Assembly: GCA_010405405.1 (NCBI GenBank)
Contig: MU004237.1
Location: 1,127,345 to 1,191,344 of the forward strand
Direction of reading: 5' to 3'
Source: Microthyrium microscopicum
Lineage: Eukaryota
DNA length: 64,000 bases
Part shown: piece by piece, positions 52,110-54,778 of the stretch
Layout of the letters: each line of letters begins with the position of its first letter
Position numbering within the stretch: position 1 is the first letter of the stretch
Position numbers and translations under genes: made by a program
Notes under the pieces: generated by a model
Database searches by the model: none
Told to the model about the DNA's origin: nothing
Seen by the model: the letters and a program-made list of their open reading frames with translations, nothing else

Positions 52110-53065
52110 ACCTCTGAGCATACAGACGAAGCGCCCACCAAGACGAGATTCCAAAGACAGCGATATATGCAGTTTTCACTCAGCCACCTGCCTTGTCTGA
52201 GAGGTCCTCTCAGCGTTGTCAGATCACAGACACGTACTCCCATATTCCTACCCTTTCCTTTTGCCGCATTTGCCGAACCAATTCTTGCTGGATCAATCGT
52301 CCAGCCTTGTTATTGGTGTGTAACAATATCAGGAGACCACTATGGTGTTTCCAAGTCGTTTTTGGATTAACTCGAGACGCAAGTTTGGAGTTTTTGGGAG
52401 CTATGCTCCCGTTGGTTTGTCCCAAGATGGGAACTGAAATGATAATGTATGCATAAATTGTTGTATTATTAGTTTGCATCTGGAGGATTGAAAGCGAATT
52501 TCAAATTCGGAGAATGAAAGACACTTTCATTATACATTTTGAGATTTTGTGTTGCTGTGATTGACGGTTCGGTTACAAATGATATAGCGTTCAAGTCCAA
52601 GAATTAGCTATGCTATTCGCTCTTCCGTATGATATACGCTGGTGAATTAATGTAGACATGGCTCAGGCACGCGGGATTAACCTGATTGACTTTCCAGAAC
52701 TGATATTGTCTCTGATGTATGTCTGTCTCAATCGCTGCAGTCCGAAGCTTTGCTGGATGCCTCGAGATCAAGTTTAGAGATCTGCTACGTGCCCGAGAAA
52801 CTGCTTGCATCAAACTTTATCACTGCACTCTGACAGACCTATGTCTCGATAGAAGTGATCTATTCCACTTACATTTACATTTCAACCTTTGAGTGCATAT
52901 ATCTAAACATAAAAAGAAAAGTACACTATACATAAGTACAAAACACCAAATCTTCTCCTTTCAGCCACCACAAACCCAGTCATTGAGATAATCGAGAGAC
53001 ACAAAGTAATATAGACGGATAGGCGTCAAGATCATTGAATATAAAAATAACGCTATTTATACAAG

Positions 53066-53247
53066 CAATGGCAGCGCCTTGGTCAAGGACCGAAGGCTGC
53101 AGCAAACTGACGCGGAATTCGCCAAAACTGTCCGTTCCTGATGTGGAAATCTATGATCTTGGTGGATTGCAACCGACTGACTAGCTGTGGCGGCGTGAAT
53201 GATTTTTATACTTGATGTTCGACTTCGGTGGTCAACTTCTTTTTTGG
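53066..53247 (+). ncRNA. Candidate Pol III-type structured ncRNA, copy 1
   Basis: A-box-like TGGCAGCGCCTTGG, B-box-like GTTCGACTTC (53217), T6 run (53240-53245), upstream TATAAAA (about 53040) and a 5' hairpin. Not recognised as a known family. Confidence 0.35.
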
Positions 53248-53505
53248 AGGGCTGTTATACGAAGTTCTCGGAGGTTTGATAAAAGGGGAGTTTCTTTAAG
53301 AGTATTAGGTAGAGGAGCGATGTATGGTGTATGACTTTTCACTTTACCAAAAGAGACGGAAAGGATGTTATATAGACGAAAAGCTGAAATTTTCAATCAT
53401 GGCCACCATAAAATTCAGTCATTGAGATGAAATTGAGCCGACCAAATTGTCGTGTGCTTTCATTACTAGTTCGGAAATGAATAACAATGTTATTTACCAG
53501 CTAGC

Positions 53506-53666
53506 CAATGGCAGCGCCTTGGACCCTTCAGCATTTGAAGCGGAAGACGAAGCAGCAGCAAACTGAGTCCGGGATTTGCCAGGTGTGTGTCCTGACGAGG
53601 AACTTGACGCAATGATCATGATGCTTGATGTTCGATCCCGGTGGCCAACATAAACTTCTTTTTTGG
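53506..53666 (+). ncRNA. Candidate Pol III-type structured ncRNA, copy 2
   Basis: Same A-box-like block, B-box GTTCGATCC (53630), T6 run (53659-53664), and hairpin CTTCA-GCATT-TGAAG at the equivalent position. Confidence 0.35.
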
Positions 53667-54778
53667 TCATTTCTAACGCTTATATCTTATTGATTCAAAC
53701 GAGAGGTGACATTGTTTGGATTATTTTTGGATGTTGTATGGTTAAGATAATGCGCAGTGTATGATGTATGATTATGTATGGTGTGGTCGTCACTAGGGAT
53801 ACGTTGTAGGACTACACAAACGAAAAGTTGAATTCTGTGGATTACTATCACATTAAACTCATGGCTCGAGATGTCCGCTTGCGCGGTTCTACTTATTGTG
53901 GCAAGAATTCGCCAGTGACAATAGGGATAAATGGTGCTTCTCAGTTGTCACTCTCAAGTCTTTAGATTCTGGTACGCGGCAGAAATCCATCTTTACTGAA
54001 ACCTCGATGTTCGGTTGCGGTGGTTTACAAAAGACTTTTTGGTTAGCTGGAAGAGTAAAAAGTGCGTACTCCCTTCAAAAGTCCAAATAAAGTCATCTAA
54101 CACTTTTTGGCGCCTGGTGTTATGCTAATGGATATTGCATCGTTCTGTAACTGCAAGGCAGCACCGGCTGTAGCATATATACGGTCAAGGGGAGATTATG
54201 TCTAGATCCCACCATTATTCCAGTCGTTGAGGATAAGCAAAATGCACGACCACGCTACGACAATCTCGGTGTTGTGACGCCGGGACTAAACGTTATCTAT
54301 CATCCAATGATTTGTCGGGAATGTGTTCTCGGCAAATAAAAGCTGGGGCAGGAGTTTGCCAGACACACATCACCGGGCCTGATGTTCAATTCCGGTGGAC
54401 CTCAATTTTTTGATGTCTCAATAGTGAGAAGAAAGCTAGCTACAGAGATTGCACTCGCTGAGAAGTTCAAATTTCAGTTTTTTTGGCGCTCATATATCTG
54501 GTGACAAACCTCAACCTGTTATCTCAGTCCGATTGATCTCATTGTCGCTCAACCAGGGCCCTCAGAAAATTGGAAAGAGTCAACTTATTTGGGAAGTTAT
54601 GATGCATGCAAGGCTGAAGCCTTGCCAAGACTCTGGGATGCTGCAGGGATGCTACACGTGACCCAGTTTTTGCCTGTTACTGAATTTCCAACAACAAGAA
54701 CCTCATCTTCCATCAACATTACAGGGAACCGACCGACATCCTCCATCTACAACACTCTAGTAAAACAAGACAAAAATC

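Follow-up and report, generated by a model that had tools for sequence, protein, structure and literature searches.

B-box-type elements in fungal non-coding DNA have been described in more than one setting. The extra-TFIIIC (ETC) sites of Saccharomyces cerevisiae combine a B box with a conserved 3' extension (PMC3395662), and each of the IR-L and IR-R boundary repeats of Schizosaccharomyces pombe carries five B boxes bound by TFIIIC, in the account cited without RNA polymerase III (Pol III; PMC7474672). ZOD1 and RNA170 (ETC5) are described as relic Pol III units that lack a transfer RNA (tRNA) structure (PMC5356446), and the precursors of the microRNA-like RNAs (milRNAs) of Neurospora offer a precedent for non-canonical Pol III transcripts in fungi (PMC3547838). 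Here, we analyse a locus of Microthyrium microscopicum that can be compared with these systems, a head-to-tail array of four units at about 52955-54600 of the 64-kb window (the whole stretch of contig MU004237.1 under study, to which all positions refer), between a gene for a DUF7603 coiled-coil protein and the splicing gene PRP31. A first-pass annotation had reported here a tandem pair of candidate structured non-coding RNA genes with a Pol III-like architecture; this pair is the young end of the array. All features of the array described below lie on the + strand.

Two homologous units are indeed present where the pair had been reported. Unit 1 (52955-53395) and unit 2 (53396-53850), delimited by unit alignment, are homologous along their entire length, with a z score of 17.8 against shuffles in global alignment and 278 of 341 ungapped columns identical. 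All the islands of identity quoted for them were found again, including CAATGGCAGCGCCTTGG, GCAGCAAACTGA, the GCCA block, TCCTGA, ATGATC, CTTGATGTTCGA, CGGTGGYCAAC and AACTTCTTTTTTGG, and the 17-mer CAATGGCAGCGCCTTGG has exactly two matches in the window (53066 and 53506) against 0.22 expected. The pair is therefore real, but the array holds four units rather than two. Unit 3 (53851-54205), missed at first pass, and unit 4 (54206-54600, the 3' limit being approximate) are both strongly diverged, and their global alignments with units 1 and 2 lie near those of shuffles (z 0.9-3.0, the value for unit 3 against unit 2 being 3.0), with the exception of unit 2 against unit 4 (z 7.2). Unit 3 has kept the conserved core described below, TGGC-N8-GCCA and the T runs. 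Unit 4 is the most compact of the four and the nearest to PRP31; the stretch from its TGGGGC to the end of its T6 run covers 68 nt (54344-54411). Tandem Repeats Finder reported only a 7-nt microrepeat in the array, because the units are too diverged for it.

The four units share an 18-nt core, GATGTTC-RR-NNN-CGGTGG (GATGTTCRRNNNCGGTGG), which has four matches in the window, all on the + strand, and none in 100 shuffles. The copy of unit 1, GATGTTC-GACTT-CGGTGG, lies at 53214-53231 (0 mismatches, 0 expected by chance), and the pattern search with GATGTTCRRNNNCGGTGG places the others at 53627-53644, 54006-54023 and 54381-54398, which gives successive spacings of 413, 379 and 375 bp. Thirteen of the 18 bases are invariant in the four copies, and the fuller shared form of the core reads YTGATGTTC-N5-CGGTGG. 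A profile of the four cores found no fifth copy in the window, the next best match having an E value of 0.36. Each core is followed, 7-14 nt downstream, by a run of five or six T and then a purine (4/4 copies): T6 at 53240-53245, 8 nt past core 1 and followed by GG; T6 at 53659-53664, 14 nt past core 2, again with GG; T5 at 54036-54040, 12 nt past core 3, also with GG; and T6 at 54406-54411, 7 nt past core 4 and followed by GA. Counted from the first base of the core, units 2-4 contain a second T run (TTTTTGG) at +97 to +99 (T5 at 53724, T5 at 54104 and T7 at 54478).

Upstream of the core, every unit has a TGGC block followed by a GCCA block. These span 53069-53124 in unit 1, where 48 nt between the halves enclose the hairpin proposed at first pass, 53509-53581 in unit 2 (halves 65 nt apart), 53899-53914 in unit 3 (TGGC-N8-GCCA, read from the sequence and from shared k-mers) and 54346-54361 in unit 4 (GGGC-N8-GCCA, read from the sequence; repeat family D4). 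The distance between the halves thus changes from 48 and 65 nt to 8 and 8 nt, and the hairpins of units 1 and 2 sit in that insertion; the distance from GCCA to the core is equally variable (89, 45, 91 and 19 nt in units 1-4). Finally, a unit-start block, CAGTCRTTGAGR, stands after CCACCAY at 52977-52988, 53416-53427 and 54221-54232 in units 1, 2 and 4; the window has no exact match to it apart from these three, and in unit 3 it is degenerate. The order and strand of the blocks are constant in the four units, and only their spacing varies.

It is this four-way conservation, rather than the islands shared by units 1 and 2, that is the sign of constraint. Identity between these two units is spread over the whole unit of ~440 bp (53% identical columns in the proposed RNA, 54% upstream of it and 44% downstream), and by our own estimate an identity of 82% is expected to give runs of 12-17 identical bases, of which there are five, so that these islands alone are no evidence of constraint. 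In the four-way alignment, on the other hand, 54 columns are invariant and 14 of them are packed into 21 columns at the core, as against ~8% of columns invariant elsewhere, a concentration too strong for neutral retention. Because the remainder of the units has drifted, with large indels separating the conserved blocks, the core is under selection in every copy, and this footprint among paralogues is the firm outcome of our analysis. The array is a selected, lineage-specific non-coding element in four tandem copies that matches no Rfam 15 family, and it is not established as an RNA gene. The four units probably arose when a 375-440-bp stretch of the intergenic DNA 5' of PRP31 was duplicated serially long ago, and most of every unit has since drifted past recognition. 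We also noticed a core look-alike inside unit 1, CCGTTCCTGATGTGGAAATC at 53135-53151, which is 75% identical to the core region of unit 4 (repeat family D6) and has TCCTGACGAGGAA as its counterpart in unit 2; the two may descend from an old internal duplication inside the unit.

As in the ETC sites of S. cerevisiae, a short intergenic B-box-like element with conserved flanking bases stands in surroundings that drift (PMC3395662). However, ETC sites are described as single and mostly located between divergent genes, whereas the array has four tandem copies between co-oriented genes. In ETC sites the extension comprises 10 bases of other sequence on the 3' side, whereas the array core has GAT on the 5' side and GGTGG on the 3' side, and ETC B boxes keep positions that vary in the array core (PMC3395662). 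Sites of the ETC type are defined by binding of TFIIIC without TFIIIB or Pol III and by conservation in related species. The IR-L and IR-R repeats of S. pombe are likewise comparable in having B-box-type motifs distributed over ~2 kb of non-coding DNA, with a boundary function in that organism (PMC7474672); yet they flank the heterochromatin of the mating-type region, and nothing at the array suggests heterochromatin. The match of the array to the B-box consensus is, moreover, weak. ZOD1 and RNA170 resemble the array in combining promoter and terminator signals like those of tRNA genes with the absence of a tRNA, and their transcription is described as weak or conditional (PMC5356446); unit 4, with its 68 nt, is tRNA-sized. 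In contrast to the array, in which no tRNA remnant was detected, they are described as single loci with a clear tRNA gene ancestry and measured occupancy (PMC5356446). The milRNA precursors of Neurospora form hairpins from which small RNAs are processed, whereas the array units have no stable hairpin beyond chance.

The reading that we favour, with a probability of about 0.4, is that the array represents a repeated protein-binding DNA module, composed of a factor site and a T tract, upstream of PRP31. We favour it because the order and strand of the blocks are fixed and the spacers are free (8-65 and 19-91 nt), because there is no fold signal, and because conservation continues beyond the proposed transcript. 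This pattern resembles that of DNA binding sites, and less that of a functional RNA body. Factor sites without transcription have precedents in the clustered B boxes of the S. pombe boundaries (PMC7474672) and in the yeast ETC sites (PMC3395662). Selection would here retain the short blocks in a fixed order and on a fixed strand, leaving their distances free. The blocks would act as DNA signals, with a sequence-specific factor site joined to a T tract, and as a pair they could constitute a promoter or boundary module in repeated copies, one that either serves PRP31 or insulates it from the upstream gene. We infer both the action of the blocks as DNA and the role for PRP31 or in insulation. Promoters of yeast housekeeping genes can have a factor site with a one-stranded oligo-T tract 10-20 bp or less beyond it, and the array may show a comparable arrangement upstream of an essential gene; a four-fold repetition at ~400 bp is atypical for such modules of factor site and T-rich promoter sequence. 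Core 4 is located ~350 bp 5' of the presumed start of the PRP31 messenger RNA, placed at 54730 by the end of a contig that gives a weak hint (see below).

A candidate reader of the module is TFIIIC, which might recognize the core as an extended B box, as at the yeast ETC sites; we would attribute to it perhaps one third of the module reading. TFIIIC is a candidate because its base contacts are described as reaching beyond the B box in both directions (PMC11724288), because ETC sites consist of a B box and an extension (PMC3395662) and because B boxes occur at the S. pombe boundaries (PMC7474672). The weak B-box match of the core argues against TFIIIC as the reader.

Several observations weigh against a DNA module. 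The core profile matches nothing else in the 64 kb, so that the core is not visibly a common promoter element. We know of no general regulatory factor whose motif matches the core, and those of Abf1, Rim101/PacC, Rpn4 (PACE) and the heat-shock element do not appear to fit. The T5-6 runs with their following purine, strand-specific and present in 4/4 copies, look like Pol III terminators for which the second T runs of 3/4 units would be the back-ups, and their distance from the B-box-like GTTCRA resembles the 3' end of a tRNA gene. DNA sites also leave the multiplication of whole modules of ~400 bp unexplained. Lastly, all four cores start an ATG open reading frame (ORF) of 21-40 codons in one and the same frame.

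The proposal that the units are novel structured RNA genes found no support. No family of Rfam 15 reaches its gathering score anywhere in the window, and at E<=10 the region 52400-54800 has just two matches, both of chance level and off the conserved blocks of the units; ARAGORN finds no tRNA gene. A weak match at 52590-52663 to GlsR9, a Giardia small nucleolar RNA (snoRNA) model, is taken as chance; it has an E value of 4.1 and reaches 16.3 bits, where the gathering score is 95. Both spacer hairpins described at first pass, in units 1 and 2, are seen again in the minimum-energy folds; yet in fold energy the two proposed RNAs do not outdo dinucleotide shuffles (z -0.68, +1.01, +0.35 and +1.86, + strand). 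RNAalifold gives a consensus energy of -0.78 kcal/mol when all four copies are folded between their GCCA block and T run, and of -11.95 kcal/mol for units 1 and 2, with compensatory changes in 0 of 19 pairs. These tests for a shared structure have low power because they rest on only four paralogues. As there is no Rfam match, no covariation and a folding behaviour like that of shuffles, a structured RNA is not supported.

Candidates drawn by eye fared no better. A hand-picked helix that joins CGGRAT to the variable central bases of the core pairs 79% of cells, as against 77% in shuffles, and was equalled by 214 of 500 shuffles. In unit 4, a stem CACCGG/CCGGTG with a TTCAATT loop and eight extra bases could be read as a tRNA relic; it is absent from units 2 and 3 and has no ARAGORN or Rfam match. 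Resemblances to C/D and H/ACA snoRNAs, a TPP riboswitch, U4, RNase P/MRP and an Sm site are unsupported by Rfam. If the units are transcribed, the constrained part consists of signals rather than of a folded RNA.

Three signals of Pol III transcription, an A box, a B box and T runs, had been named at first pass, and of these the T runs alone are above chance, and strongly so. The A box sought was TRGCNNAGTGG, 10-20 nt after the start, or its minimal form TNGNNNANNNG (PMC11724288). When nine A-box positions were scored 25-170 nt upstream of the cores, and in 2000 random 145-nt stretches of the window, the best matches reached 7, 6, 6 and 6 of 9, as compared with a random mode of 6 and a score of 7 in 528 of the 2000 stretches. 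Cores 1-3 lack the minimal motif TNGNNNANNNG in the 170 nt upstream of them, and only core 4 is preceded by it; the sequence originally taken as the A box, TGGCAGCGCCTTGG, is confined to units 1 and 2. For the B box we tested GGTTCGANTCC with its critical internal C, and counted mismatches to GGTTCRANTCC; the four cores have 2, 2, 3 and 1, respectively, and matches with up to two mismatches are as frequent in the window as expected (89 vs 90.9), which is chance level. The islands between two copies, the A and B boxes and the hairpins are weaker evidence than the weight that the first-pass annotation had put on them.

The T runs nevertheless make a Pol III reading worth weighing. Each unit might be a separate small gene, transcribed by Pol III or in a similar manner into an RNA that stops in the T run. 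In that case the core would be an internal B-box-like promoter or a conserved 3' motif of the RNA, and the RNA body would evolve freely. We regard this as a serious alternative, less probable than the DNA module, that our tests neither establish nor refute. For Pol III termination, five T are described as sufficient in S. pombe; in S. cerevisiae the number is six. A 5T terminator is stronger when an A or G comes next, and read-through of 50-200 nt is common (PMC5356446). The runs of T6, T6, T5 and T6, placed 7-14 nt past the core with a purine next, agree with the lengths and the purine effect reported for Pol III terminators, and the second runs of 3/4 units with the back-up sites (PMC5356446). 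GTTCRA is present in the core of 3/4 copies and the internal B-box C in 4/4, units 2 and 4 match GTTCRANNCC fully, and the distance from GTTCRA to the T run is like that of a tRNA gene. TFIIIC is reported to contact specific bases flanking the B box at either end, and to recognize the A box mainly by its shape (PMC11724288). Unit 1 has a TATA-like AT-rich stretch ~25 nt 5' of its TGGC, and small RNA genes typically multiply in tandem. The relic units ZOD1 and RNA170 set a precedent (PMC5356446). On the other side stand the chance level of both boxes, with unit 3 at three mismatches and TNGNNNANNNG missing before three of the four cores, and the lack of any Rfam or tRNA match in the window and of any fold or covariation signal. 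In addition, A58 and C61 of the B box, described as invariant in tRNA genes and in eight yeast ETC sites (PMC3395662), are among the most variable positions of the core, changing in units 1 and 3, and the invariant GAT and GGTGG of the core fall outside the B-box positions. A narrower form of this idea, in which the units are lineage-specific mini-genes for Pol III-type small RNAs and constraint bears only on the U tail and on UGAUGUUC-N5-CGGUGG, a bipartite motif at the 3' end that would be a platform for protein binding rather than a folded body, seems to us quite improbable. The adjacency of PRP31 and the islands of UGAUG/CUGA type leave room for a link to the kink-turn-binding partners of PRP31, which is speculation backed by no test.

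Two further explanations were weighed, and to each of them we assign very little probability. According to one, every unit contains a tiny protein gene that starts at the ATG of the core, the peptides having the form MF-x-x-GG and the T run being read as F or FW. The gap had been called free of ORFs; ORFs of up to 87 aa do occur in it, although its coding potential is indeed low in all six frames. With a dicodon model trained on the genes of this window, the best 90-nt stretch of the gap scores 9.4, as compared with in-frame gene means of ~20, and none of 16 small ORFs reaches a Pfam cut-off. It speaks for such genes that the four cores open same-frame ATG ORFs of 39, 21, 27 and 40 codons, the probability that all four have at least 21 codons being 0.025 (judged on 1172 other ATGs outside long ORFs), that the length from GG to FW differs between units 1, 2 and 3 by 6 and 3 nt, which keeps the frame, and that the single variable base beside CGGTGG is a third codon position (GGT, GGC, GGT and GGA). 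Nevertheless, the low coding potential tells against them, the tails of the peptides past residue 12 are unrelated and unequal in length, and codon 4 varies at positions 1 and 2 with position 3 constant. The start context is poor, units 1 and 2 have several upstream ATGs, and the small ORFs lack a signal peptide, a processing motif and a Pfam match; the best Atlas match scored 0.76, with low recognition, and a homologue search with the 40-aa ORF gave no candidate. According to the other explanation, the array is a non-functional tandem duplication in neutral decay whose shared pieces were left by chance. This would suit the unit-wide identity of units 1 and 2, whose identical runs are no longer than 82% identity predicts, and no transcript, homologue or structure was found. 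Units 3 and 4, however, are near-random otherwise and yet preserve, in unchanged register, a GCCA block, 13 invariant bases of the 18-nt core and a T run, and the concentration of 14 invariant columns in 21 is by our own arithmetic far past chance.

The gap that hosts the array is 2.67 kb long and is flanked by two genes on the + strand. The upstream gene (49473-52109) is an ORF of 878 aa with a Pfam DUF7603 match of 3.5e-33. PRP31, 3' of the array (54779-56404), is one ORF without interruption and matches Pfam Nop (1.5e-70) and Prp31_C (3.3e-46). Its closest relatives are three proteins of 74-77% identity, two from metagenomes and one from the assembly of a public run; identity to PRP31 of named fungi is ~50-55%. 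The host is an ascomycete from a sparsely sampled lineage. As no entry of the protein collection exceeds 77% identity to this PRP31 and the lineage is poorly sampled, ordinary comparative footprinting is impossible here. We considered whether the array could consist of decayed copies of the 5' end of PRP31, and rejected this candidate: local alignments of the four units with 54601-55050 lie inside the range of shuffles, and the core profile misses the site. Codons 10-19 of PRP31 (CTTGATGGGTTCCGACTCAGATGG, 54808-54831) are core-like and lie 427 bp past core 4, in the register of the array; the resemblance is not significant.

Public sequence data offer some side observations on this region. A look-up of RNA runs over 52900-54650 listed none. 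Of four runs compared with the region, one was guessed to be RNA; its single contig, of 7177 nt and carrying the same species label, starts at 54730 with adapter-like letters before it, that is, 49 nt 5' of the PRP31 ATG, and this is a weak hint that 54730 is the 5' end of the PRP31 messenger RNA. The same single run has no contig over 52700-54729, which says nothing on expression. Stretches 53806-54102 and 54307-54462 are represented by identical short contigs of low depth in two DNA runs from one sample, labelled as another organism; these matches to units 3 and 4 look like trace carry-over of the present organism and not like a relative. A metagenome scan with the core plus T run as pattern gave at least 120 loci. 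Among the matches listed, none has a second core copy or flanks similar to the array, and their contexts are bacterial-looking. Many of these loci (L007, L013 and L019 among others) repeat, with hardly a difference, the same one or two coding stretches from bacteria and have no relation to the fungal element.

The array is of modest interest pending a transcript, a binding factor or orthologues. What it offers already is a footprint obtained within one genome: four old paralogous copies take the place of cross-species footprinting and expose a selected element of ~30 bp upstream of an essential splicing gene. If a factor binds this element, a new cis-element would have to be assigned; if Pol III transcribes it, it would represent a new family of small RNAs or a relic Pol III unit beyond the model yeasts.

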